The position numbers and the translations under genes are program-made. This document shows, piece after piece, positions 12,486 through 51,536 of a stretch of 64,000 nt of DNA (positions are counted from its first letter, which is position 1; each line of letters begins with the position of its first letter). The notes below the pieces were generated by a model. That model was not told the DNA's origin. It did not search any database and saw only the letters and a list, made by a program, of their open reading frames with translations. This DNA is from an uncultured Clostridium sp. (lineage in GTDB: Bacteria; Bacillota_I; Bacilli_A; RF39; UBA660): positions 38,697 through 102,696 of the forward strand of contig CABUQZ010000001.1 in assembly GCA_902493795.1 (NCBI GenBank). Direction: 5' to 3'.

Positions 12486-12959
12486 TTAATAGAACGGTAA
12501 CTCATCAGGATCAATCTCAATATTAGACCCTGCATTCCAAACACTAGCACCTTCAGAACTTGAATCGCTAGAAAAATCGCTTGGACTTACAGAAGAATCA
12601 TCAAAATTGCTGCTTGATGGCATATCACCTTTTCTATCCAAAAATTGAACAGAATCAGCAACTACATATGTTGACCATACTTGATTTCCATCTTTATTTG
12701 TATAATTATCAACCTGAAGTCTTCCATCGATAGCTATTTGATTTCCCTTTTTTTGAAACTTTGCCAAATTTTCTGCTTGTTTTCTCCATGCAACAACACT
12801 GATAAAATCAGCAGTTCTATTGCCATCTTGATTTCCAGATACAAAGCTTCTATCTACTGCGATAGTAAACCTACTACGAGCTACGCTTCCATTACTTGAA
12901 TTAACATACTCACATGTTGGGTCTTTTGTAAGACGACCAACTAAACATACTCTATTCAT
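12486..12959 (-). CDS. ssb: Single-stranded DNA-binding protein
   Basis: OB-fold N-terminus [14 protein letters not shown] and acidic tail ...DPDELPFY. Confidence 0.9.
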
Positions 12960-23498: not shown

Positions 23499-24392
23499 TT
23501 ACTCACTTATATTTAGTATTTCTAAAATTCTATTTAAATCATTTACATTGCTAAAAGAAATACTAATTTTATTAGAATTTATCTTTACTTTCGTTCCTAA
23601 CTTATCGCACATTACATTTTGAATATATTCATAATCATTATTTTTTGTTGTTTTTATTTTATGAGACTTTTCAATATTTCCTGTTTTAGAAACATTTTCA
23701 ATATCTCTAACGTTTAAGTTTTCATCAATAATTTTATTAGCTAAAGCCAAAATATCTTCTTTGTTTTCCATCTTACTAAGAACTCTTGCATGACTCATAG
23801 ATATTTTATTATCGATAATCATATCTTTAACTTCTTCAGGCAAATTTAAAAGTCCTAGCATATTAGTAATATAACTTCTACTTTTTCCTAGTCTGTTTGC
23901 TAGTTCTTCTTGAGTTATTTTCATAGCATCGATCAAACTTCTATATGCCATTGCTTCTTCTATTGAGTTTAAATTTTCTCTTTGCAAGTTTTCAAGCAAA
24001 GCAATTTCCATCATTTGTTGATCTGAAAAATCCCTTACGATAGCAGGTATTTTATCAATTTCTGCCATTTTACATGCTTTAACTCTTCTTTCACCCGCTA
24101 TTATTTCGTATCCCTTAATAGAACTTTTCTTAACTATTATTGGTTGAAATACTCCATGTTCTTTTATTGACTGAGCAAGTTCTTGAAGTTTTTCTTCATC
24201 AAAAACTTTTCTAGGTTGATATGGATTTGGTCTTAACTCATCAATTGGTAATTCTACTATTTCATCAACTGAAGTAGAATCAAGTATTTTTTCTTCAATT
24301 TGGTCAAAATTAATCTGTTCATTATTAAATAATTCTTCTAACCCTTTTCCAAGAGCTCTTCTTTTAAAATTACTATTGTCCATTTCTCTCAA
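23499..24392 (-). CDS. parB: Chromosome partitioning protein ParB/Spo0J
   Basis: LPIDELRPNPYQPRKVFDEEKLQELAQSIKEHGVFQPIIVKK...GYEIIAGERRVKA. Confidence 0.9.
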   Translation of the reverse strand: MREMDNSNFKRRALGKGLEELFNNEQINFDQIEEKILDSTSVDEIVELPIDELRPNPYQPRKVFDEEKLQELAQSIKEHGVFQPIIVKKSSIKGYEIIAGERRVKACKMAEIDKIPAIVRDFSDQQMMEIALLENLQRENLNSIEEAMAYRSLIDAMKITQEELANRLGKSRSYITNMLGLLNLPEEVKDMIIDNKISMSHARVLSKMENKEDILALANKIIDENLNVRDIENVSKTGNIEKSHKIKTTKNNDYEYIQNVMCDKLGTKVKINSNKISISFSNVNDLNRILEILNISE

Positions 24393-25158
24393 TCACTTCC
24401 TTAGCTAGATTTATATAGGCATCTGTTGCTCTACATTTTGGATCATAAGCAAGTATTGGTTTTCCATGTGAAGGACATTCAGCAAGTCTTACCAATCTTG
24501 GTATTATTGTATTATATACTCTTTCTTTAAAATACTTTCTAATTTCTTCAACGACTTCGAATCCTAAATTAGCTCTTGAATCAAGCATTGTAAGTAAAAC
24601 ACCTTCTATTTCCAAACTAGGATTCAATTGTTTTTGAGCCATCATAATTGTATTTAATAATTGCATTATTCCTTCAAGTGCTAAAAATTCACACTGAACC
24701 GGAATAATAACTGAATTAGAAGCTGTTAAAGCATTTATTGTAATAATACTTAAAGTTGGTGGACAATCAACTATTATATAATCATATTTATCTCTTATTG
24801 GATCTATTTTATTTTTTAATTGTGCACCCTTAACAAAATTAGGTTCTTCTTTAGATTTTTCAAAGAATTCCGTCTCTAATCCGCTTAAATTAACTGTAGC
24901 AGCAAGAAGATCTAGTCTATTATACTTCGTATGAATTATTGCTTCATCAATATTGCATTTTCCAATTAATACATCATATATTGTTCTATCTATATCACCC
25001 TTGTTCATACCAATTCCAGTTGTCGAATTACCTTGTGGGTCTAAATCTATAAGTAAAACTTTCTTACCTAAATAAGCTAAAGATGCAGATAAATTAATAC
25101 TAGTAGTAGTCTTTCCAACTCCACCTTTTTGATTAACAAGAGAAATCATTTTTCCCAT
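24373..25158 (-). CDS. parA: Chromosome partitioning ATPase ParA/Soj
   Basis: Deviant Walker A NQKGGVGKTTTSINLSA. Confidence 0.95.
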   Translation of the reverse strand: MGKMISLVNQKGGVGKTTTSINLSASLAYLGKKVLLIDLDPQGNSTTGIGMNKGDIDRTIYDVLIGKCNIDEAIIHTKYNRLDLLAATVNLSGLETEFFEKSKEEPNFVKGAQLKNKIDPIRDKYDYIIVDCPPTLSIITINALTASNSVIIPVQCEFLALEGIMQLLNTIMMAQKQLNPSLEIEGVLLTMLDSRANLGFEVVEEIRKYFKERVYNTIIPRLVRLAECPSHGKPILAYDPKCRATDAYINLAKEVIERNGQ

Positions 25159-25258: not shown

Positions 25259-26617
25259 TTATTTTTGTAAATTAATAGTTATCTTGTAACTAGAGTCACT
25301 ATCTGCTTCTTCAAAGCTAACTTTATATCCTTTACCTTCAAGTGAAGTAATTGCATTTTTTATATCAGCAATTGCAGGAGTTAAATCAGCTTTAGTTGGA
25401 ACAGCAATTCCAACAGATCCAATAGAACTAGCAACATTTACTGGTTCTTTAGCTATATTTGAGTTAAAAAATTGATCAAAATTATTAGTAGTTGGTGGTG
25501 GAGCTAAAGTAGAAGCTGTCGTTGTTTGCAAAGGAGATGTTGTAGTTTGTTCTTTATTTGCTGTTTGATTAAAACCAAACGTTGGAACAAATTTAAATCC
25601 ATCATTTTGTGGCTCAGTTGTATCTTTCATAAGATCTTTTACATCAACTGTTTCTGGTTTTATTCCACCTATATCAACAGAATTTTCTCTTATTTTATTT
25701 ATATCTATTGTTGTAGGATTATTTTGAGTTATAGGAGCACTTGTTTCTTTTACAGGTTCAGTTTCAGGCTCTGTAGATGAAGGTATTCCAAAATTAGCTA
25801 AATTAAATTGAGGTGCTGTTGTAGATTGTTCACTTGGTAACGAACTAACACTACCAATAGCTTGATTTTGAACATTTCCCACTATATCATTAGCTGTTAA
25901 CATATTATTAATTCCTATCTGGTTATTCATAGTAGCACCACCCTCAACTGTTCCACTTGGATTTACATTATCTGTTCCAGGTTTACTATCATTTATTAAC
26001 TTAATTTCTTTATCTAAATCTCTAACAGTCATCTTTTCATCAATGATTCTATTTAACATTTTTATTTGGTCATTTTTATCTTGAAGATTCAATAAGCTTC
26101 TTGCATGACGTTCAGAAATTTTCGTTTTTAACAAAGCATCTTGTACTTCATCTGGAAGAGCAAGCAATCTTAATTTATTAGATACAGAAGACTGTGTTTT
26201 ACCCATCGTTGCAGCAAGTTGCTCTTGAGTCATATTATCCTCAAGTTCTAGTATTTTTTGGTAAGTTCTTGCTTCTTCAATAGGAGTTAAATCCCTTCTT
26301 TGTAAGTTTTCAATTAATGCAACCTTAGAACTTTCTTTATCATCTAAATTTTTTACTATAGCAGGTATTTTAGTAAGTCCTGCCATAGTAGAAGCCTTAT
26401 ATCTACGTTCTCCTGCTATTATCTCATACTTATTATCAACTTTTCTAACAATAATGGGCTGAATAACCCCATGTTCCTTAATTGAAACAGCAAGTTCCTT
26501 TAATGCTTGATCATCAAAAACTTCTCTTGGCTGAAATCTATTAGGAATAATATCATCTAAATATAATGAAACTACTTCACTATTACCATCCATAACTAAC
26601 ACCCTCTTCTTATACAC
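25259..26617 (-). CDS. noc: Nucleoid occlusion protein Noc (ParB paralog) with a long low-complexity C-terminal extension
   Basis: IPNRFQPREVFDD..GVIQPIIVRK..EIIAGERRYKAS..KISERHARSLL matches Noc/ParB. Residues 230-415 are a T/P/Q/N-rich disordered tract, followed by a short C-terminal domain. Confidence 0.75.
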   Translation of the reverse strand: MYKKRVLVMDGNSEVVSLYLDDIIPNRFQPREVFDDQALKELAVSIKEHGVIQPIIVRKVDNKYEIIAGERRYKASTMAGLTKIPAIVKNLDDKESSKVALIENLQRRDLTPIEEARTYQKILELEDNMTQEQLAATMGKTQSSVSNKLRLLALPDEVQDALLKTKISERHARSLLNLQDKNDQIKMLNRIIDEKMTVRDLDKEIKLINDSKPGTDNVNPSGTVEGGATMNNQIGINNMLTANDIVGNVQNQAIGSVSSLPSEQSTTAPQFNLANFGIPSSTEPETEPVKETSAPITQNNPTTIDINKIRENSVDIGGIKPETVDVKDLMKDTTEPQNDGFKFVPTFGFNQTANKEQTTTSPLQTTTASTLAPPPTTNNFDQFFNSNIAKEPVNVASSIGSVGIAVPTKADLTPAIADIKNAITSLEGKGYKVSFEEADSDSSYKITINLQK

Positions 26618-26707: not shown

Positions 26708-28030
26708 TTATTTTAATTCTGGAACTGCATTTGTATCAGACGTTTCTACTCTTAAGAATCCATCATATTCTGCTGTTTCTCCAGGAGACAACGTTCTTCT
26801 TGTAGTATCATATTCAGATGGATAAAACGTATACTCATTATTATTTTTTACATACATTAATGGATTATAAGAATAAGCATTTTTAAACTCAGGAGGTGCT
26901 ACTAAAACAAATGACCAGTCTTTAACATCAGTAGAAGAAGTATTAGTAACATAAACATTATAATCTTCTACATAAGAGCTTCCTCCAGCTGTATAATAAC
27001 TTTTTCTTTCTAATCTAACTTTTAATGTAGGAAGTTCAGCATACATATCATTTGAATCTCCAACTACACCACCATGTGATGTTCCTTCATGAGTACCATC
27101 GATAAGTTCAACATATTGAATATTACCATTTTTCAATATAAACTCTTTGTCTTTAGGGAACTTAATTTGGAATCCACTATTGAAATTGCTATGTGATGCA
27201 TTTAAATAGTTCCATGTAGATTGAGATGGATTTCCTATAACTTTTAATTTAGTTCCATTTAATTCAAGCTTTACTAAGCTTTGATCAAATCCAGGATTAT
27301 CTAGAATTGTTCCTTCTGGTACATCAAAAGTTGCATCAAATGACTTAATTGTCGACAAGTTACCAATATTTGTAACATCAATTGCAGCATTATAACAAAC
27401 TTTATAATCACCTTGAATACTACATCTATCTAAACGAACATCTATTTTTAATTTCAAGTCTTTATAAATCCATGTAATGTTATCTGTTGTTGTTGTAGTA
27501 GTAATATTTTGTTCAATTGTTTCTTTAGATGTACAGTTTGCATTATATACGACAACATGTTCTTTCCCCTCGATTGATTGAATCTTAACATCTGATATAG
27601 ATAATCCAGCTTCAATTAAATCGGCATCCAAATCATCGTATTTTGTTAAATCTTTAATTCCTTGTCCTGTTTCATCAACACTTGTCCAATAATAATCATA
27701 TCCATTACCATTGTAAGTAACAACTATATAGGCACTGACGAAATCACCATATGGTGAAACTGGTTTATCTCCGTTTTCAAGGTTAATACAAGAAGATGGA
27801 ATGTAATAAGTAACTGAGGAATCGTATGCTTCTAACTTACCGCTATTAACTAAAACTCTAGCACCGCCAATAACTTGTTTTGCTGTATCGACATATGCAT
27901 TTTTCCTTGAACTAGAGATATATGAAGTAACACTAGGAATTGCAATTATCATCAATATACCCAATATGATAATAACTGCTAATAATTCAATTAAAGTAAA
28001 CCCTTTCTTATTCTTTTTTTTCATTTTCAT
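26708..28030 (-). CDS. Type IV prepilin-like protein (N-terminal methylation motif) with a large C-terminal extension containing two repeated beta-rich modules
   Basis: Class III signal KKGFTLIELLAVIIILGIL. The C-terminal half has two modules of about 90 aa sharing VTN..G...W / GF motifs, reminiscent of carbohydrate-binding or Ig-like domains. Confidence 0.7.
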   Translation of the reverse strand: MKMKKKNKKGFTLIELLAVIIILGILMIIAIPSVTSYISSSRKNAYVDTAKQVIGGARVLVNSGKLEAYDSSVTYYIPSSCINLENGDKPVSPYGDFVSAYIVVTYNGNGYDYYWTSVDETGQGIKDLTKYDDLDADLIEAGLSISDVKIQSIEGKEHVVVYNANCTSKETIEQNITTTTTTDNITWIYKDLKLKIDVRLDRCSIQGDYKVCYNAAIDVTNIGNLSTIKSFDATFDVPEGTILDNPGFDQSLVKLELNGTKLKVIGNPSQSTWNYLNASHSNFNSGFQIKFPKDKEFILKNGNIQYVELIDGTHEGTSHGGVVGDSNDMYAELPTLKVRLERKSYYTAGGSSYVEDYNVYVTNTSSTDVKDWSFVLVAPPEFKNAYSYNPLMYVKNNNEYTFYPSEYDTTRRTLSPGETAEYDGFLRVETSDTNAVPELK

Positions 28031-38453: not shown

Positions 38454-38580
38454 AATTCCACCTCCAAACTAAAATCGACATTATTATAATAAGGAAATAA
38501 CAAAATGTCAATTAAAATAATATCATTAAAATAATTATGATGCAACAAAAAAATACAAATTTCCACATTATTCACAACCC

Positions 38581-38743
38581 TGTGTATAAATATACGTAAA
38601 GTTATTCACATAATTAACAAACATGTTGAAAACTTAATAACATCCTGTGATTTAAAATTTGTGGAAAAAGTGGAAAACTCATATTTTACATATAAATAAA
38701 AGGTTTTACCTATGGATAACTTAGTGTATAACTTATGGATAAC
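38581..38743. promoter_or_regulatory. oriC upstream part (incA/B-like): cluster of degenerate DnaA boxes upstream of dnaA
   Basis: TGTGTATAA (38581), TTATTCACA (38602), TGTGGAAAA (38660), TATGGATAA x2 (38711, 38734). Each is one mismatch from TTATCCACA. Confidence 0.6.
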
Positions 38744-38825
38744 TATTTTTTGATTTTTTCTCTTTCTTTTTTTGCACAATTGGTCTACAATATTTGTTGT
38801 ATTTTGACAGGGGGCTTGATAAAGA

Positions 38826-40208: not shown

Positions 40209-40337
40209 TTAACAAGTTATCAACAAGAATGTTAATAAAAAAATTGCTAAAATGTCGTAAAATCAAGAATTTTGAAAGTTATACACAATATTCACTTCAA
40301 TAATATAAATAATATATAAAAAGAAAGAGGTAATAAT
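40209..40337. promoter_or_regulatory. dnaA-dnaN intergenic region (incC-like): two degenerate DnaA boxes plus an AT-rich unwinding-element candidate
   Basis: TTATCAACA, TTATACACA, then aataatataaataatatataaaaag. Confidence 0.5.
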
Positions 40338-41468
40338 ATGAAATTAAAAATAAAAAAAGATTTATTATTAGAAAATTTAAACAAAGTATCAAAAGCAATA
40401 TCAACAAAAAATTTAATACCAACTTTAGCAGGAATAAAGTTTGATCTTACAAAACAAGGATTAACTTTAACAGCATCTAATAATGATATTACAATCCAAA
40501 AATTTATTAAAATAGAAAAAGATAACATAAATGTGGATAAAGAAGGAGTAGCAATACTTCAAGGAAAAGATATATTAGATATAGTAAGAGTAATTCCTGA
40601 AGAAGAGATTAACATAGAAGTATTTGATGAATCAAAAGTACTAATATATACAGATGATGAAAAAATAAAATATGACTTAAATGTTATTAATAAAAATGAT
40701 TATCCTAATGTTGATTTAGAAAAAAGTGACAATTATATCACAATATCTGCAAAAAACTTACTTGATATAGTAAGAGAAACAGCATTTGCAACTTCAAGTG
40801 ATGAATCACGTCCTGTTCTTACAGGTATAAGCTTCAAAATTAATGGAGATTTACTTGAGTGTATAGCAACAGATTCTTATAGATTATCAAGAAAGAATTT
40901 AAGATTAGACAAAGCTGTTGAAGAAAACTACAATATTATAATTCCAGGAAAAAATATAATTGAATTTTCAAGAATAATAGATAGTAATGAAACAGAAGTC
41001 AAAATGCATATATTTAACAATAAAGTATTATTTGAAAATGAAGATTTACTATTCCAATCTAGATTAATAAGTGGAAATTATCCACCAACATCTAAATCTA
41101 TACCAGAAGAATTTAATTTAACTATTAAGGCTAATTTATCACAATTATATAATGTTATTGAACAAGCAAGTATTTTAACAACAGATAAAGAAAAAAATAT
41201 CGTTTCATTATCAACTAAAGACAACTTATTAACAGTAAAATCAGTTTCTAATGAAAAGGGAAAAGCTGAAATGAAAATGAATATAGAAAAAAATAACAAC
41301 GAAGAAATAACAATTGCTTTCAGTGCAAAATATATGATGGAAGCTTTAAACGCTTTATCAACAGAAGAAGTGGAAATGTCTTTTGTAGGAGAAGTAAAGC
41401 CTATAGTTATCAAGAATAACGTTGATGATGGATTACTTCAATTAGTAGTACCAATAAGAACATATTAA
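40338..41468 (+). CDS. dnaN: DNA polymerase III beta sliding clamp
   Basis: 376 aa three-domain beta clamp; synteny after dnaA. Confidence 0.95.
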   Translation: MKLKIKKDLLLENLNKVSKAISTKNLIPTLAGIKFDLTKQGLTLTASNNDITIQKFIKIEKDNINVDKEGVAILQGKDILDIVRVIPEEEINIEVFDESKVLIYTDDEKIKYDLNVINKNDYPNVDLEKSDNYITISAKNLLDIVRETAFATSSDESRPVLTGISFKINGDLLECIATDSYRLSRKNLRLDKAVEENYNIIIPGKNIIEFSRIIDSNETEVKMHIFNNKVLFENEDLLFQSRLISGNYPPTSKSIPEEFNLTIKANLSQLYNVIEQASILTTDKEKNIVSLSTKDNLLTVKSVSNEKGKAEMKMNIEKNNNEEITIAFSAKYMMEALNALSTEEVEMSFVGEVKPIVIKNNVDDGLLQLVVPIRTY

Positions 41469-41545: not shown

Positions 41546-42004
41546 ATGAACAATTATGAAATTAATGAAGATACGTATGCAATTATTTCACAGAATAGTG
41601 GAAAAACAAGAATAGTAGAAAGAAAATATGAGTTAGATGTGGAAAAAAATGCATACGAAATTATGGATGAAAGCTGTAAATACTATGGAAGTAGCTATAA
41701 GGGTAGAATAGAAGCTGCTAAAGATATTTTAAATTGTAGCTATAAACTGCCAATACTAGTAGAGGAGAGTAGTGCATTAATATTTTTTCCAATTAAGTCT
41801 TCTTTATTAGAAGATTGCTGTTGGATTAATCTTAATAGCATTGATAATATTGAAAAACAGAATAATAAATCTATTGTGACATTTAAAAATGGTAAAAAAG
41901 TGACCTTTGATATTTCTAAACTTTCACTAGAAAATCAAATTTATAGATCATCTAAATTAGAGTCAATAATTTATAAAAGAAAAAGTGCAAAAAAAAGGGA
42001 TTAA
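41546..42004 (+). CDS. comK: ComK-family competence transcription factor homolog
   Basis: SCKYYGSSYKGR, KLPILVEESSALIFFPIKS, CCWINL, VTFKNGKKVTFDISKLSLENQIYRSSKL align with conserved blocks of B. subtilis ComK. Confidence 0.7.
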   Translation: MNNYEINEDTYAIISQNSGKTRIVERKYELDVEKNAYEIMDESCKYYGSSYKGRIEAAKDILNCSYKLPILVEESSALIFFPIKSSLLEDCCWINLNSIDNIEKQNNKSIVTFKNGKKVTFDISKLSLENQIYRSSKLESIIYKRKSAKKRD

Positions 42005-47763: not shown

Positions 47764-47804
47764 TAATTTAGTTGTAATTTATTAATTAATATAGTAAAAT
47801 TTAA

Positions 47805-47892
47805 TTGATGCAATAAGTACGGCAGAACTAGGTCAGGACAGGAATGTAGCAGCCTTAATGCTTATAAAAATTTGTACTTATGTGCATCATTT
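47805..47892 (+). ncRNA. ffs: Signal recognition particle RNA (small 4.5S-type)
   Basis: Domain IV motif AGGUCAGG-ACA-GGAA-UGU-AGCAGCC closes a GGAA tetraloop. The 5' segment GATGCAATAAGTAC pairs with the 3' segment GTACTTATGTGCATC. A tadA-scr-dnaX neighbourhood is known from Bacillus. Confidence 0.7.
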
Positions 47893-47913
47893 TTTTTGGA
47901 GTTGTGGAAGTAT

Positions 47914-48336
47914 ATGATCAAAGATGATTTATATTATATGAATCAAGCCTATAATGAAGCATTAAAGGCCTATGATAAAAATGAAATTCCAGTAGGAGCT
48001 GTAATTGTATGTAATGGAAAAATTATAGCAAGAGGACATAATTTAAGAGATTCGAGCAATATTGTGACAAAACATGCAGAAATCATAGCAATAGAAAAAG
48101 CAAATAAAAAGAAAAAAAACTGGAGATTAATAGATTGCATTCTATATACTACATTAGAGCCATGTAATATGTGCAAAGAGGTAATAAAAGAAACAAAAAT
48201 AAACAAAGTTATCTACGGAGCAAGTGGTAAAAATCCAAGTAAAGAGGAAAAAATAATTCAAATTAAAGATCAAAATATAATAGCACAGTGTGAGAATATT
48301 ATTTGTAAAATGTTCAAAAATATAAGAGAAAAGTAA
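47914..48336 (+). CDS. tadA: tRNA-specific adenosine deaminase TadA
   Basis: HAEIIAIEKA ... TLEPCNMCKEVI zinc-binding motifs. Start placed at MIKDD to avoid overlapping ffs (the tracked ORF starts at 47872). Confidence 0.85.
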   Translation: MIKDDLYYMNQAYNEALKAYDKNEIPVGAVIVCNGKIIARGHNLRDSSNIVTKHAEIIAIEKANKKKKNWRLIDCILYTTLEPCNMCKEVIKETKINKVIYGASGKNPSKEEKIIQIKDQNIIAQCENIICKMFKNIREK

Positions 48337-48346
48337 TATAAAAAAT

Positions 48347-48372
48347 TGTGGATAAAAGTTTCACGTGAAACG
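48347..48372 (+). promoter_or_regulatory. Composite element 1: DnaA box TGTGGATAA (48347-48355) abutting parS-like AGTTTCACGTGAAACG (14/16)
   Basis: Direct sequence match; 1-nt gap. Confidence 0.7.
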
Positions 48373-48465
48373 AAGTAAAAAAAATCTACGTAATAATTCC
48401 AATAATAGATTATTTATTGGAATTTTTTTTTGAAAATATTTCCTTATTACATTTTTTATTTAAAT

Positions 48466-48850
48466 ATATTATTTCTTGGGAAATATTCTATAAATTATTT
48501 CCCAAAGACCATAGATAGTAAAAATATATTTCCCGAGAAATATTTATATATAATTATTATCTTAATATATTAGTTGTTAAAAAAAATATTTCCTGGGAAA
48601 TATTCGATAAATTATTTCCCAAAAACTATAAATAGTAAAAAATATATTTCCCGGGAAATAATTATATGTAATTATTATCCAATATAATAGTTGTTGAAAA
48701 AAAATTTTTCCCAGGAAATATTCTATAAATTATTTCCCAAAAACTATAAATAGTAAAAAATATATTTCCCGGGAAATAATTATATGTAATTATTATCCAA
48801 TACAATAGTTGTTGAAAAAAAATATTTCCTAGGAATTATATAAATATTTT
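48466..48850. repeat. About 3.2 tandem copies of a 119-bp repeat, each carrying two Noc-binding-site-like palindromes
   Basis: Unit starts at about 48466, 48586, 48704 and 48823. Perfect ATTTCCCGGGAAAT at 48646-48659 and 48764-48777. Variants with 1-3 mismatches: ATTTCTTGGGAAAT (48471), ATTTCCCGAGAAAT (48528), ATTTCCTGGGAAAT (48588), TTTTCCCAGGAAAT (48706), ATTTCCTAGGAATT (48825). Confidence 0.85.
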
Positions 48851-49135
48851 ATATAAAGTATTAATTAAAGAATAGTGATTGCAATTTTATTTTAAGAATA
48901 ATCTTTTTATATTATATAAGATTATTTTTATTTGTGGAAAAAGAAATATATAGTTTTAATAATAAAGAAAATAAACGAAGAAAAAATATTTAATAATAAA
49001 CATATTTTATAAAAAATAAATTTTGTATATGCATCTTGTTGATAAAAGTTATAAGTGGCAAAAGAGAAGAAAATATAAATGAAAAAATGGTAAAACGAAG
49101 AAAAAAAGATTAATTTATTAAATACAAACAGTTTA

Positions 49136-49161
49136 TGTGGATAAATGTTTCACGTGAAACA
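49136..49161 (+). promoter_or_regulatory. Composite element 2: perfect DnaA box TGTGGATAA plus perfect parS TGTTTCACGTGAAACA (49146-49161)
   Basis: 16/16 match to the Bacillus-type parS consensus TGTTNCACGTGAAACA. Confidence 0.85.
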
Positions 49162-49250
49162 TAATAATAATCTGGAAAAAGGAAGTAATAAACAAAATAG
49201 GTGAAAAACAGAACGGAGAATAAGATATTGATGAATAAATTAAGAAATCA

Positions 49251-49275
49251 AAAGGATAAAGTTTCATGTGAAACT
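49251..49275 (+). promoter_or_regulatory. Composite element 3 (degenerate): AAAGGATAA plus AGTTTCATGTGAAACT (13/16)
   Basis: Same architecture as the other units, with mismatches. Confidence 0.45.
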
Positions 49276-49375
49276 ATTGATAGTGGAAAAAGATATTATA
49301 TAGAATAAAAAAGAAAGTAAAACGGAGAAAAAAAGTTTTATATATAACATTTAAGAAAAATAATATGAACATTTT

Positions 49376-49400
49376 TGTGAATAATGTTTCACGTGAAACA
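49376..49400 (+). promoter_or_regulatory. Composite element 4: DnaA box TGTGAATAA plus perfect parS TGTTTCACGTGAAACA (49385-49400)
   Basis: 16/16 parS; the box has one mismatch. Confidence 0.85.
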
Positions 49401-49488
49401 TAAAACTTAGTGGAAAATATAAAAAATATTAATAATTTGATATGATTATAATTGTGACTAAATGCTTTATGTATCAAAATTTCTAGAT

Positions 49489-49513
49489 TGTGGAAAAAGT
49501 TTCACGTGAAACA
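49489..49513 (+). promoter_or_regulatory. Composite element 5: DnaA box TGTGGAAAA plus parS AGTTTCACGTGAAACA (15/16)
   Basis: Direct sequence match. Confidence 0.75.
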
Positions 49514-49585
49514 TTATAAATAAAATGTAGAATATAACTTATAAATAATATTTTAAATAATAATGTAATAAAAACGGTTGTGCTT

Positions 49586-49686
49586 TGTGGATAAAAATTG
49601 TTGATTAAAAAAATAGAAATATATGTAAAGTAAAATAAAAATAGAATATTAAAAAATAATTTTTATATATTTTTTATTGTGGATAA
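49586..49686 (+). promoter_or_regulatory. Two further perfect DnaA boxes (TGTGGATAA at 49586-49594 and 49678-49686) inside an almost pure A/T tract (49600-49900)
   Basis: 9/9 consensus boxes in the same orientation as the composite units; the flanking DNA is over 90% AT. Confidence 0.7.
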
Positions 49687-49930
49687 AATTTAAAAAAACA
49701 AAAAAATATGTGTTTTAACACTTTTTATATCAAGAAAATAACAAAAATGTAATAATAATATTTATATGTATGATTTTGCTTATAAAATATTTTTATAGAT
49801 AAAAAATAATGTTTTTATATAATGTCAATATGTATGCTTAAAAATAAATGTAAAGTATGTAAATATACGTAAAAATAATGATAACTTGTTGATAAAAAAT
49901 ATATTCAAAATGTCTGTAAAATAAAATATT

Positions 49931-49945
49931 TATGGTATAATATAT
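49931..49945 (+). promoter_or_regulatory. Extended -10 promoter element (TGgTATAAT) for dnaX
   Basis: tatggtataat lies 25 nt upstream of the dnaX start. Confidence 0.45.
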
Positions 49946-49967
49946 CTTGAGATTTATAGGGGGACTT

Positions 49968-51536
49968 ATGGAATATCAGACATTATATAGAAAATATAGA
50001 CCTAAGAATTTTGATGAAGTTGTGGGACAAAAAGTAACTATTCAAATATTGAAAAATGCTTTGAACAAAAATAAATTGTCTCATGCGTATCTTTTTTATG
50101 GACCACGTGGAACTGGAAAAACATCAATTGCCAAAATACTTTCAAGAACGATCAATTGTGAACATCACGAAGATGGAATTCCATGCGAAGAATGCACAAG
50201 TTGTTTAGCATCCATTAATCCAGGATGTGTGGATATTATAGAAATAGATGCGGCTTCAAATAATGGTGTTGATGAAATAAGAGAATTAAAAAATAACGTT
50301 ACTTTTGTTCCATCTGAATTAAAATACAAGGTATATATTGTTGATGAGGTGCATATGCTTTCTTCAAGTGCCTTTAACGCACTATTAAAAACATTAGAAG
50401 AACCACCAGCTCACGCTATATTTATTCTTGCAACTACAGAGTTTCAGAAAGTTCCGTTGACTATTGTTTCTAGATGCCAAACTCTTGAATTTAAAAAAAT
50501 TGATGATATTTCAATGACACAAAAGTTAAAAGAAATCTCTTTAAAAGAAAATATCAAAATAGATGATACTGGCTTAAAAGAAATATGTAAATATTCTAAT
50601 GGAGGACTTCGTGATGCAATAGGAATACTTGAAAAAGCAATTGCATATACTGATGATACAATCACAGATAATACCATAAAAGAAATATCTGGTAATATAT
50701 CTGATAGTGAACTTGAGATGTTTACAAAAATGTTTGATGATAAAAATATTGAAGGAATTATTCAAAAAATATCTGACTATTATAACGAAGGTATTGATCT
50801 AATAAAATTGTCTAATAATTTAATTGATTATAATAGAAATAAGATGATTAACACAAAAAAATATTCTACTAAAACATGTAGTTTACTAATTGAATTAGAT
50901 AAAATGGTATCTAATATGGAAAAGTCAGAAAATCCAAAAACTTTGTTAGAAGCAACTATAATTAATTTTCTTATTGATAAAAAAGAAGAAAATATACCAA
51001 ATAATAGTAACGTTTCTAAGAATGTTAATCAAATAGATACAGAATCAACTGAGCAAAATAATAATGAAGTAAAACCAATAGAAGAAAAGCCTGTTTCAAT
51101 AGAAACAAAAGATGATTTAATAGAGATAAGGGTTAACAATACTCTATGTAATCCTCAAAAAAATATTATTTCAGAAATAAGAAATAATTGGGATAAAATG
51201 AAAGATTATGCGTTTGATGAGGAATTTGGTAACATAGCAAGATTATTATCATCTGATGTGGTGCCAGTTGCAGCAAGTGATACAAACGTAGTATTAACAT
51301 CAAAAATGGGTGGAATAGCAACACAAATTAATACTGAACTAGACACTGTGGAAAAAATATTTAACAAAATCTTCAATAAGAAATATAAGGTAATTTGTTT
51401 ATCTGAAACAACGTGGAAAAAATATACTGAAGAATATAGAGAAAATAAATCGAAATTTACTTATATTGAAGAAAAAATAAACGAAAAAAAGAATAAGACA
51501 TTAAAAGAAAAAGCAAGAGAATTATTTGATGAATAG
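49968..51536 (+). CDS. dnaX: DNA polymerase III subunit gamma/tau
   Basis: YRPKNFDEVVGQ ... GPRGTGKTSIAKIL ... zinc module CEHHEDGIPCEECTSC. Start at MEYQTLY with RBS GGGGGA (the tracked ORF begins 7 codons upstream). Confidence 0.95.
   Translation: MEYQTLYRKYRPKNFDEVVGQKVTIQILKNALNKNKLSHAYLFYGPRGTGKTSIAKILSRTINCEHHEDGIPCEECTSCLASINPGCVDIIEIDAASNNGVDEIRELKNNVTFVPSELKYKVYIVDEVHMLSSSAFNALLKTLEEPPAHAIFILATTEFQKVPLTIVSRCQTLEFKKIDDISMTQKLKEISLKENIKIDDTGLKEICKYSNGGLRDAIGILEKAIAYTDDTITDNTIKEISGNISDSELEMFTKMFDDKNIEGIIQKISDYYNEGIDLIKLSNNLIDYNRNKMINTKKYSTKTCSLLIELDKMVSNMEKSENPKTLLEATIINFLIDKKEENIPNNSNVSKNVNQIDTESTEQNNNEVKPIEEKPVSIETKDDLIEIRVNNTLCNPQKNIISEIRNNWDKMKDYAFDEEFGNIARLLSSDVVPVAASDTNVVLTSKMGGIATQINTELDTVEKIFNKIFNKKYKVICLSETTWKKYTEEYRENKSKFTYIEEKINEKKNKTLKEKARELFDE

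Follow-up and report, generated by a model that had tools for sequence, protein, structure and literature searches.

Within the window analyzed here (the whole 64-kb stretch of DNA), all parS sites are confined to one intergenic gap, where they lie alongside Noc-binding sites (NBS). This gap (48337–49967, 1.6 kb, non-coding) is bordered on the left by tadA, encoding tRNA adenosine deaminase (47914–48336, + strand; NCBIfam TadA match; called as a 140-aa gene in same-species contigs), itself preceded by the gene for SRP (4.5S/scRNA) RNA (47804–47894, + strand; Rfam RF00169, scoring 44.9 bits where the gathering score is 40), and on the right by dnaX. The dnaX start at ATG 49968 is fixed by a 522-aa gene call in same-species contigs, and reading of the sequence places a ribosome-binding site (AGGGGGA, 49958–49964) and a probable promoter with an extended −10 element (TGgTATAAT, 49933–49941) just before it (49933–49970 in all, + strand). 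A consensus scan of the gap for sigma-70 promoters was uninformative (33 sites against 26.5 expected). Behind tadA lies a terminator-like hairpin (48395–48431, + strand) with an 11-bp stem followed by a T run and a folding energy of −10.6 kcal/mol (z = −3.5); the consensus terminator scan, which requires G–C pairs, found no terminator in the gap and missed this hairpin because its stem has too few of them. Apart from the SRP RNA, the only hit in an Rfam scan of the gap (E up to 1) was an sRNA match below threshold (26.6 bits, gathering score 48), so that an additional RNA gene in the gap is unsupported. The gap contains five parS sites, seven NBS and nine DnaA boxes with at most one mismatch, and four of the five parS sites are adjoined by a DnaA box.

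DnaA boxes and A/T-richness of the gap

A first-pass annotation of this DNA had drawn attention to the interval 49580–49946, which is one end, the dnaX-proximal one, of the larger parS/NBS array. The two perfect DnaA boxes it had listed are present at 49586–49594 and 49678–49686 (both + strand; TGTGGATAA, the reverse complement of TTATCCACA), ~382 and ~290 bp upstream of the dnaX ATG, and they are far beyond chance: in a Markov-1 simulation of the interval 0.003 perfect boxes were expected, and two or more occurred in 0 of 5000 runs. It had overlooked two further perfect boxes, at 48347 and 49136. Its one-mismatch boxes at 48933 (TGTGGAAAA) and 49037 (TGTTGATAA) are where it placed them (48933–49045, + strand), and the third, a dnaX promoter-proximal TGTTGATAA, begins at 49887 (49887–49895, + strand) and not at 49888. 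The gap as a whole thus holds 4 perfect and 5 one-mismatch boxes against 0.03 and 0.70 in simulations; counted together, boxes with at most one mismatch number 3 in 49580–49946 and 9 in the gap, where 0.22 and about 0.70 were simulated. The entire window has 5 perfect boxes against 0.59 expected. All nine gap boxes point the same way. This common orientation, which the first-pass annotation had not noted, extends to 17 of 19 9-mers that resemble a box at up to two mismatches. With this number of boxes in 1.6 kb, 8–11 kb from dnaA–dnaN, the gap is a DnaA-box cluster. By eye, the 49037 box is followed by a decayed parS-like sequence, GTTATAAGTGGCAA, with 8 of 14 matches.

The same interval had been described as a pure A/T tract resembling an unwinding element. 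It is in fact 86% A+T (51 G/C in 367 bp), and its longest pure A/T run, 34 bp, is equalled elsewhere in the window. That the DNA is easily melted holds nevertheless: of all 300-bp segments in the window, the one starting at 49604 is the least stable by nearest-neighbor free energy (−300.5 kcal/mol), a value that reflects composition only and not unwinding.

parS sites, Noc-binding sites and their proteins

The five parS sites compare with 0.06 expected by chance. The first belongs to a composite (48347–48371, + strand) in which the perfect DnaA box TGTGGATAA (48347–48355) is separated by a 2-nt spacer from the parS core GTTTCACGTGAAAC (48358–48371); this composite is kept in strains L081–L086. 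The other four form a cluster (49136–49512, + strand) with cores at 49147, 49261 (one mismatch), 49386 and 49499, at a spacing of 113–125 bp, and in three of these four a DnaA box on the + strand ends 1–2 nt before parS (the perfect box at 49136, TGTGAATAA at 49376 and TGTGGAAAA at 49489). The box–parS composite of 27 bp reads TGTGGATAAATGTTTCACGTGAAACAT, and the exact 16-bp parS consensus TGTTTCACGTGAAACA is present at two of the five sites (49146–49161 and 49385–49400).

The interval 49580–49946 has no parS site at all, and the boxes at 49586 and 49678 stand alone in the A/T-rich spacer ~95–210 bp past the last box–parS composite; what links them to the array is shared flanks (TTGTGGATAAAA) and a spacing of ~92–126 bp. 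When the putative ~100-bp units of 48931–49946 were aligned, identity outside the box/parS heads was ~50%, the background for this composition; the tract therefore cannot be demonstrated to consist of homologous repeat units.

The seven NBS, palindromes of the ATTTCCNGGGAAAT type, are spaced 58–60 bp apart within a 118-bp × 3.1 tandem repeat (48462–48839; 91% matches) identified by tandem-repeat and motif scans. A search allowing up to three mismatches gave 12 matches in the window, 7 of them in the gap array, against 2.55 expected; the perfect 14-nt core is found in two of the seven gap sites, and copy number among strains varies from 3 to 7. The consensus sequences of parS and NBS were checked against PMC7383237, which gives the NBS consensus as TATTTCCC-GGGAAATA.

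The cognate proteins are encoded 22–26 kb to the left of the gap, all on the − strand and all identified by NCBIfam, Pfam and PDB alignments: ParB/Spo0J (23499–24392), ParA/Soj (24373–25158) and a Noc-like ParB paralog of 452 aa (25259–26617). At the four specificity positions defined in PMC7383237, where Noc has Q173, K179 or K184, and R201 (Caulobacter ParB numbering), the Noc-like protein reads Q-K-A-R (from GKTQSSVSNKLRLLA...SERHAR) and ParB reads R-M-N-S. The locus thus combines the elements of a ParABS system (consensus palindromes, a cognate ParA and ParB, sites 8–11 kb from dnaA–dnaN, and conservation of the locus) with those of a Noc system (palindromes like TATTTCCCGGGAAATA, plus a Noc-like protein whose specificity residues include the NBS-type Q, K and R).

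Conservation within the species and among relatives

In an alignment of seven strains the box at 49586 falls within 15 consecutive invariant columns (TTTGTGGATAAAAAT) and its flanks vary. The box at 49678 is perfect in four of the six other aligned strains and has one mismatch in L082; in L090 it is removed by a deletion of ~145 bp. Hardly any variation among the seven strains is seen in the ~170 bp just before dnaX, a stretch that holds the 49887 box. As judged from these alignments, the DnaA boxes of the gap are conserved islands among divergent strains. An identical YbaB protein is indexed for 90 blocks of the assembly collection.

Of 80 genomes of related uncultured Bacilli, nearly all have arrays of parS and NBS between gyrA and dnaX, with 1–12 parS per array at most of these loci. 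The array of L061 has 12 parS alternating with 13 NBS at a spacing of 82–83 bp, and in some relatives the array unit is a 41-bp triple NBS plus box plus parS; L017 has an NBS–box–parS triple. In the relatives, 70 of 289 parS sites (24%) have a DnaA box of no more than one mismatch 0–8 nt away, that is, 7.8 per offset at 0–8 nt against 0.67 at offsets of 10–30, counted in both orientations since a single-orientation count gave an underestimate. Five different box–parS geometries occur in different sub-lineages, and this recurrence argues for selection on parS-adjacent boxes. In the majority of relatives the arrays contain DnaA boxes rarely or not at all, from which it follows that the boxes are not essential to the centromere. 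The A/T-rich tract is species-specific, since in the 20 relatives with an array between tadA and dnaX only 38–243 bp separate the last parS or NBS from dnaX. The exact composite was also found in 20 stretches of JGI metagenomes, about half of them from the same lineage: ~10 independent contigs have the same composite in the same gyrA–tadA–dnaX context. The remaining stretches (37–71% GC) are no more than chance could give, and the composite is therefore not claimed outside the lineage.

Transcriptional control of dnaX and neutral decay as alternative explanations

One alternative is that DnaA at these boxes represses or activates dnaX, thus tying clamp-loader supply to the DnaA level. In its favor, the 49887 box (TGTTGATAA) is ~50–60 bp upstream of the predicted transcription start and within the nearly invariant ~170 bp, at least 13 other relatives have a box with at most one mismatch 43–157 bp upstream of dnaX (including L018–L020, L024, L030, L033, L034, L047, L053, L060, L065, L073 and L074), and DnaA is a transcription factor in B. 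subtilis, where some clusters regulate neighboring genes (PMC3245932). However, the frequency of such near-dnaX boxes is about that expected from the general box density in the gaps of relatives (1.45 per kb × 0.13 kb × 62 loci, ~12), the two perfect boxes, 290 and 382 bp upstream of the ATG, are far from the promoter, and the boxes fused to parS are left unexplained. We consider control of dnaX an unlikely role.

Quite unlikely as well is that the boxes at 49586, 49678 and 49887 are functionless leftovers of decayed, tandem-duplicated box–parS units. The flanks they have in common with the composites and the continuation of the array spacing are what such an origin would leave, and it comports with variation of repeat copy number between strains, with the loss of a unit in one strain and with the absence of the tract from other genera. 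But decay does not account for two 9-mers that are still perfect though the neighboring parS halves have become unrecognizable, nor for the invariance of the 49586 box in strains with differing flanks, nor for the recurrence of parS-adjacent boxes, with differing geometries, in several sub-lineages.

The canonical origin region and strand bias

The first-pass annotation was correct that neither canonical origin spacer has a perfect DnaA box. The rpmH–dnaA spacer (38467–38825) holds six one-mismatch and five two-mismatch boxes; the same spacer in relatives has 9.8 one-mismatch and 1.6 perfect boxes per kb. The dnaA–dnaN spacer (40209–40337, + strand) has two one-mismatch boxes and contains a candidate unwinding module, with TTATCAACA at 40217 and the tandem TTATACACA-ATATTCACT at 40279–40296, followed by TCAATAATATAAATAATAT and the dnaN ribosome-binding site. 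In an alignment of 20 relatives this spacer is conserved as a series of tandem boxes (TTATNNACA-ATWTCCAC), GTAATAATAATA trinucleotide repeats and an A/T-rich stretch, in that order, and the A/T-rich part is among the least stable 0.2% of 30-bp windows. Across the 80 relatives the DnaA-box density of the two canonical spacers is 5 to 15 times that of the gap (12.7 + 3.8 per kb at the canonical site against 1.45 + 0.25 per kb in the gaps).

No switch of strand bias occurs at the gap, either in the window or in 49 lineages, nor does gene orientation change there, all 21 genes from dnaA to the end of the window being on the + strand. Neutral-site bias in the window is similar for the genes from dnaA to tadA and those from dnaX onward (AT4 of +0.22 and +0.16, GC3 of 0.01 and 0.04, respectively), and among the 49 lineages the bias on the two sides of the gap correlates with r = 0.94. 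A switch was also sought rightward through same-species contigs to about 73 kb, and none was found. Raw GC skew does flip at 38–39 kb; this flip was rejected as evidence for an origin because it coincides with the switch in gene strand, and skew at the first codon position is +0.4 to +0.6 in every gene. At fourfold-degenerate (neutral) sites there is no flip at rpmH/dnaA either. Skew thus provides no confirmation of the canonical origin, and the result that the first-pass annotation had named as refuting a moved origin, skew that places the origin strictly at the rpmH/dnaA junction, is not cleanly obtained either. The direction of neutral-site bias differs between sub-lineages. Since the bias runs through rpmH/dnaA and its direction varies in this way, the active origin of the family, or the symmetry of its fork progression, may not be dnaA-centered and bidirectional.

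These data bear on the proposal that the functional origin or its unwinding element has moved to the tadA–dnaX gap, where DnaA at 49586 and 49678 would open the adjacent A/T-rich DNA and replication would start. What makes it attractive is that the two perfect boxes sit in the 300-bp stretch of lowest stability in the window, together with the lack of a perfect box in the canonical spacers, the missing neutral-site flip at dnaA, and an arrangement that formally fits an origin-unwinding pattern: (NAN)x3, TAA TAA AAA, at 49565–49573, a 12-nt spacer, the 49586 box and, 4 nt on, a weak box (TGTTGATTA, 49599). The DnaA-trio rule applied here calls for a box (at most two mismatches), at least three NAN within 0–16 nt on the correct strand, and a second box; because A makes up ~48% of that strand, chance alone would satisfy the rule most of the time. 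The (NAN)x3 is accordingly non-discriminating in 86% A+T DNA, and its spacer is not conserved in strain L089. Given also that bias is equal on both sides of the gap, that other genera have only a 38–243-bp tail in place of the tract, that one strain has deleted the 49678 box, that the dnaA–dnaN module is kept in 20 relatives, and that the + strand genes from dnaA to tadA would meet a leftward fork head-on, a relocated origin is very improbable.

Discussion

The reading that we favor, and consider reasonably probable, is that the tract before dnaX is the dnaX-proximal end of a centromere-like array, that its boxes act as an origin-proximal secondary DnaA-box cluster, and that unwinding most likely stays at dnaA–dnaN. 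The array in the gap would be where two CTP-dependent clamps of the ParB family, whose genes lie 22–26 kb to its left, load onto DNA, the five parS serving ParB/Spo0J and the seven NBS serving Noc. The box cluster, ~10 kb from dnaA, would hold DnaA beside the ParB–Soj–Noc nucleoprotein complex, and would either titrate DnaA or couple its availability to centromere loading. Where the sites abut, it is probable that DnaA competes sterically with ParB or that each protein impedes the movement of the other. Unwinding of the origin would most likely take place in the dnaA–dnaN spacer, at its conserved module (tandem boxes, trinucleotide repeats, A/T-rich DNA). A cluster that titrates DnaA or regulates dnaX had been offered in the first-pass annotation as the alternative to a moved origin, and it is compatible with nine co-oriented, strain-conserved boxes; the parS/NBS setting had been missed, however, and the most likely role of the cluster changes because it is embedded in a centromere array.

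More tentatively, initiation, segregation and division control might be wired together in one cis element, and it is likewise only possible that the active origin or fork symmetry departs from the textbook dnaA-centered scheme. In these uncultured small-genome gut Bacilli the tandem array of box-fused parS interleaved with Noc sites may be that cis element. DnaA occupancy would then gate the loading or sliding of ParB clamps, or be gated by them, and membrane anchoring of the origin region would fall to the mixed ParB/Noc domain.

ParB and Noc, both CTP-gated DNA clamps, are paralogs, and the arrangement of their sites has been studied in few model species, with dispersed sites. A natural array that alternates ParB and Noc loading sites, some of them fused to high-affinity DnaA boxes, is a ready-made test substrate, suited to studying competition, blocking or recruitment between the initiator and the clamps for segregation and occlusion. 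As B. subtilis has the same consensus for each of the three binding proteins, existing purified B. subtilis proteins and strains could serve directly. The locus also illustrates that perfect DnaA boxes in A/T-rich DNA near an origin do not justify an origin call without comparative evidence, and it points to a lineage where placing the origin by skew may mislead.

Comparison with known systems

The basal unwinding system of bacterial oriC consists of a DnaA-box pair, DnaA-trios and A/T-rich DNA (PMC8287927). A box pair, A-centered triplets within 16 nt and easily melted DNA are likewise seen in the tract, a pattern that is non-discriminating at this base composition. The tract differs in having no conserved counterpart outside the species and no strand-bias switch, the better conserved module being in the dnaA–dnaN spacer. 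In E. coli the datA locus, non-coding and close to the origin, groups high-affinity DnaA boxes and reduces the potential for initiation, working through IHF-dependent hydrolysis of DnaA-ATP. We know of no link of datA to ParB or Noc in E. coli. The datA locus is mentioned in PMC5010248.

The six DnaA-box clusters (DBCs) of B. subtilis are proposed to restrain initiation by binding DnaA, and genetically they act in concert with Spo0J/Soj (Okumura et al. 2012, PMC3245932). Like them, the gap has consensus boxes clustered in non-coding DNA near but outside the origin; unlike them, its boxes are fused to parS, interleaved with NBS, co-oriented and spaced as ~100-bp repeats. We are not aware of a B. 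subtilis DBC that is part of a parS array. In Caulobacter crescentus, DnaA binds boxes in the parS centromere (Mera et al. 2014, reviewed in PMC6399470), where its box-binding domain is used at a centromere a few kb from the origin, linking initiation to segregation (PMC6399470). DnaA boxes at a centromere near the origin are common to both, here as sites predicted from sequence; the present locus belongs to another phylum and differs in its tandem arrays, in having the box 1–2 nt from the parS core, and in its Noc sites.

Multiple ParB nucleation sites are a feature both of chromosomal parS clusters and of the centromere repeat arrays of plasmids, F sopC among them. The gap is like the former in concentrating such sites near the origin, and its lineage is like plasmid centromeres in its regular tandem repeats, with units of 82–118 bp in relatives. 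In model Firmicutes chromosomal parS sites are dispersed and lie mostly inside genes, whereas here they share one intergenic gap and alternate with the sites of a second ParB-family protein. Chromosomal parS clusters and plasmid centromere arrays are reviewed in general in PMC7333895.

The NBS palindrome consensus, TATTTCCCGGGAAATA, is identical to that of B. subtilis and S. aureus (PMC7383237, PMC5540599), the Noc encoded here has the same Q/K/R specificity residues, and in S. aureus Noc restrains initiation (PMC5540599). Known NBS are spread along the chromosome, through the half to two-thirds of it nearest the origin, whereas here seven of them (up to 13 in relatives) stand in tandem, 58–83 bp apart, beside parS.

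An array of parS, Noc-binding and DnaA-box sites between tadA and dnaX

The A/T-rich tract at 49580–49946 lies inside a 1.6-kb non-coding gap (48337–49967) between tadA (47914–48336) and dnaX (ATG at 49968), and the DnaA boxes noticed there by the first-pass annotation are real, yet they represent just one end of a larger structure. Perfect boxes (TGTGGATAA, the reverse complement of TTATCCACA) are present as claimed at 49586 (box 1) and 49678 (box 2); 0.003 perfect boxes are expected in the tract by simulation, and two occurred in 0 of 5000 runs. One-mismatch boxes are found at 48933, 49037 and 49887 (the last had been placed at 49888), and the rpmH–dnaA and dnaA–dnaN spacers do hold one-mismatch boxes only. 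The description of the tract as pure A/T was overstated: 51 of its 367 bp are G/C (86% A+T), the longest pure run being 34 bp. Nearest-neighbour free energies nevertheless put it last in stability among the 300-bp stretches of the whole window. A motif with ATGTAAAGTA, repeated upstream of dnaX (49619–49632 and 49844–49857) and invariant in seven strains, may be the binding site of some regulator. Another perfect box falls within the dnaN coding sequence (40532–40540), and 30 of the 43 boxes in the window (≤1 mismatch) lie in 38.5–51.4 kb, many of them intragenic.

Five parS-type palindromes (ParB/Spo0J sites, GTTTCACGTGAAAC) occur in the gap, against 0.06 expected, with cores at 48358, 49147, 49261, 49386 and 49499; two of them are the exact 16-bp consensus TGTTTCACGTGAAACA (PMC7383237). 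At four of these five sites a DnaA box stands 1–2 nt ahead of parS (perfect at 48347 and 49136, one mismatch at 49376 and 49489). Between parS sites lies a tandem repeat (118 bp x 3.1, 48462–48839) containing seven copies of ATTTCCNGGGAAAT, 58–60 bp apart, which by sequence match the Noc-binding-site (NBS) consensus TATTTCCCGGGAAATA (PMC7383237). The whole gap holds four perfect and five one-mismatch boxes (0.03 and 0.70 in simulations), and 17 of its 19 box-like 9-mers (≤2 mismatches) share a common orientation. A hairpin with a T run identified by folding at 48395–48431 is probably the tadA terminator; an Rfam scan of the gap returned no RNA family match. No description of tandem arrays in which parS alternates with NBS and is fused to DnaA boxes was found in the literature searched.

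ParA (24373–25158), ParB (23499–24392, minus strand) and a Noc-like ParB paralog of 452 aa (25259–26617, minus strand) are encoded in the window. The paralog and ParB were compared at the four specificity positions of PMC7383237 after alignment to solved structures of Noc and Spo0J. The paralog has Q-K-A-R; because Q and R are the residues that switch specificity and a single lysine suffices (PMC7383237), it is predicted to be of NBS-type specificity. ParB shows the parS-type R at the first position and S (SMSHAR) at the equivalent of Caulobacter G201, the position of an invariant glycine in ParB orthologues (PMC7383237). In the paralog the ParB_N and HTH domains (residues 15–208) are followed by a C-terminal extension of ~240 aa that has no Pfam match; a protein of 440 aa whose N-terminus is prepilin-type is encoded between its gene and rsmG (26708–28030).

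Conservation in relatives and strains

For comparison 80 loci were fetched by GyrA query (70–90% GyrA identity) from uncultured low-GC gut Bacilli, whose records bear the names Bacilli, Erysipelotrichaceae, Tenericutes, Clostridium sp. CAG:1193 and CAG:302, and among which dnaA-to-recR synteny is kept. Arrays of parS and NBS lie between gyrA and dnaX, before or after tadA, in nearly all 80, for example 12 parS alternating with 13 NBS at a period of 82–83 bp (L061), 7 parS with 7 NBS (L047), and 7 parS with 6 NBS (117 bp; L041). A DnaA box (≤1 mismatch) stands 0–8 nt from parS at 70 of 289 sites, i.e., 7.8 boxes per offset versus 0.67 at offsets of 10–30; beside NBS the corresponding values are 1.3 and 0.4. 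Sub-lineages differ in how the box is oriented and spaced relative to parS, a pattern more suggestive of selection acting repeatedly than of a single accident passed down. In four loci (L017–L020) a triple unit of NBS, 2 nt, DnaA box, 2 nt and parS recurs several times per array; these triples sit in gyrA–tadA gaps (e.g., L017 ~12606–12646), with box orientation opposite to that in the window. About ten contigs of the JGI metagenomes carry the exact composite of DnaA box and abutting parS core amid the same genes; matches there in other, higher-GC organisms were no more numerous than expected by chance.

Within the species, contigs from independent metagenomes (L081–L090) keep the general order of sites, with 3 to 7 NBS copies and, among the six that span the gap, gap lengths of 1428 to 1731 bp. 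In a seven-strain alignment box 1 falls within 15 invariant columns with divergent flanks, and hardly any variation occurs over approximately the last 170 bp upstream of dnaX, where the 49887 box lies. Of the six other strains, four have a perfect box 2, one carries it with a single mismatch and one has lost it to a deletion. The pattern speaks for constraint acting on boxes and dnaX promoter region alike. Several short-read assemblies (Logan contigs L087–L090) end at their position 1 in the gap at NBS repeats; the breaks lie about 1.1–1.2 kb upstream of dnaX, and the NBS repeat number in any single assembly, the window included, may therefore be unreliable.

Position of the replication origin

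The proposal that the origin or its DNA-unwinding element has moved to the tadA–dnaX gap is not supported, and four lines of evidence go against it. First, a conserved unwinding-type module stays in the dnaA–dnaN spacer: in an alignment of 20 relatives a tandem box pair is kept (TTATNNACA, then directly ATWTCCAC), followed 3' by GTAATAATAATA, whose triplets are T-centred on the strand read and thus A-centred on the opposite strand, then A/T-rich DNA and finally the ribosome-binding site of dnaN. The module occupies 40279–40325 in the window and is built like the unwinding module of B. subtilis type (PMC8287927). Second, across the 80 relatives the canonical spacers are far richer in boxes (one-mismatch + perfect: 9.8 + 1.6 per kb upstream of dnaA, 12.7 + 3.8 between dnaA and dnaN) than the gyrA–dnaX gaps (1.45 + 0.25; elsewhere 0.58 + 0.05). 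Third, in 20 relatives with the array between tadA and dnaX the distance from the last parS/NBS to dnaX is 38–243 bp, versus 433 bp in the window, and the tract is therefore species-specific. Fourth, neutral-site strand bias (AT4 and GC3) is alike on either side of the gap, both in the window (AT4 +0.22 vs +0.16; GC3 0.01 vs 0.04) and across 49 lineages (r = 0.94 for AT4, 0.85 for GC3). DnaA-trios fitting the published rule can formally be read beside the box at 49586, but this does not discriminate at 86% A+T, and the spacer there is not conserved in strain L089.

Skew analysis, which had been suggested as a check, favours neither the gap nor the canonical position. The flip of raw GC skew at 38–39 kb mostly reflects which strand is coding; 4-fold sites show the plus strand to be A-rich on either side of dnaA, from 0 to ~73 kb, regardless of gene strand (coding-strand AT4 -0.13 and GC3 +0.37 for 32 minus-strand genes to the left; AT4 +0.19 and GC3 about +0.03 for 21 plus-strand genes to the right). 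The same bias continues to ~73 kb in a same-species contig (L091 10760–20759), two minus-strand genes included. Among the relatives, the value on one side of the rpmH/dnaA junction tends to fall as that on the other side rises (r about -0.5), with a sign that depends on sub-lineage. What looks like a uniform bias passing through the dnaA locus could reflect replication starting away from dnaA, forks that progress asymmetrically or some other cause. There being no neutral-site flip at dnaA, skew can neither confirm the canonical origin nor establish, for this family, where replication starts and how symmetrically the forks proceed.

Gene content near dnaA was also noted. A 152-aa ORF between dnaN and recF (41546–42004, plus strand), a slot occupied by yaaA in B. 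subtilis, belongs to the ComK family (Pfam PF06338, 141 bits) and is also called in same-species contigs. Right of dnaA, the plus strand carries a DHH-family gene, rplI and the gene for the replicative helicase (L091 12205–14994; ~64.7–67.4 kb in window coordinates); B. subtilis has them across the origin. In L091 the plus-strand genes stop at ~72 kb, followed by two minus-strand genes.

Proposed role of the gap

Most likely ParB and Noc would use the gap as a loading pad that, in this species, doubles as an origin-proximal DnaA-box cluster. By analogy, DnaA bound there would be titrated from oriC or put within reach of Soj/ParB/Noc; because the box–parS spacing is only 1–2 nt, DnaA and the ParB clamp are likely to compete sterically or to act as roadblocks to one another at the abutting sites. 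The first-pass alternative of a DnaA-box cluster is plausible, and control of dnaX through the promoter-proximal box would be a compatible minor role. The gap is likened to the DnaA-box clusters of B. subtilis, which hold back initiation and show genetic interactions with spo0J/soj (PMC3245932), to the boxes bound by DnaA in the Caulobacter centromere (PMC6399470), and to S. aureus, where initiation is restrained by Noc (PMC5540599).
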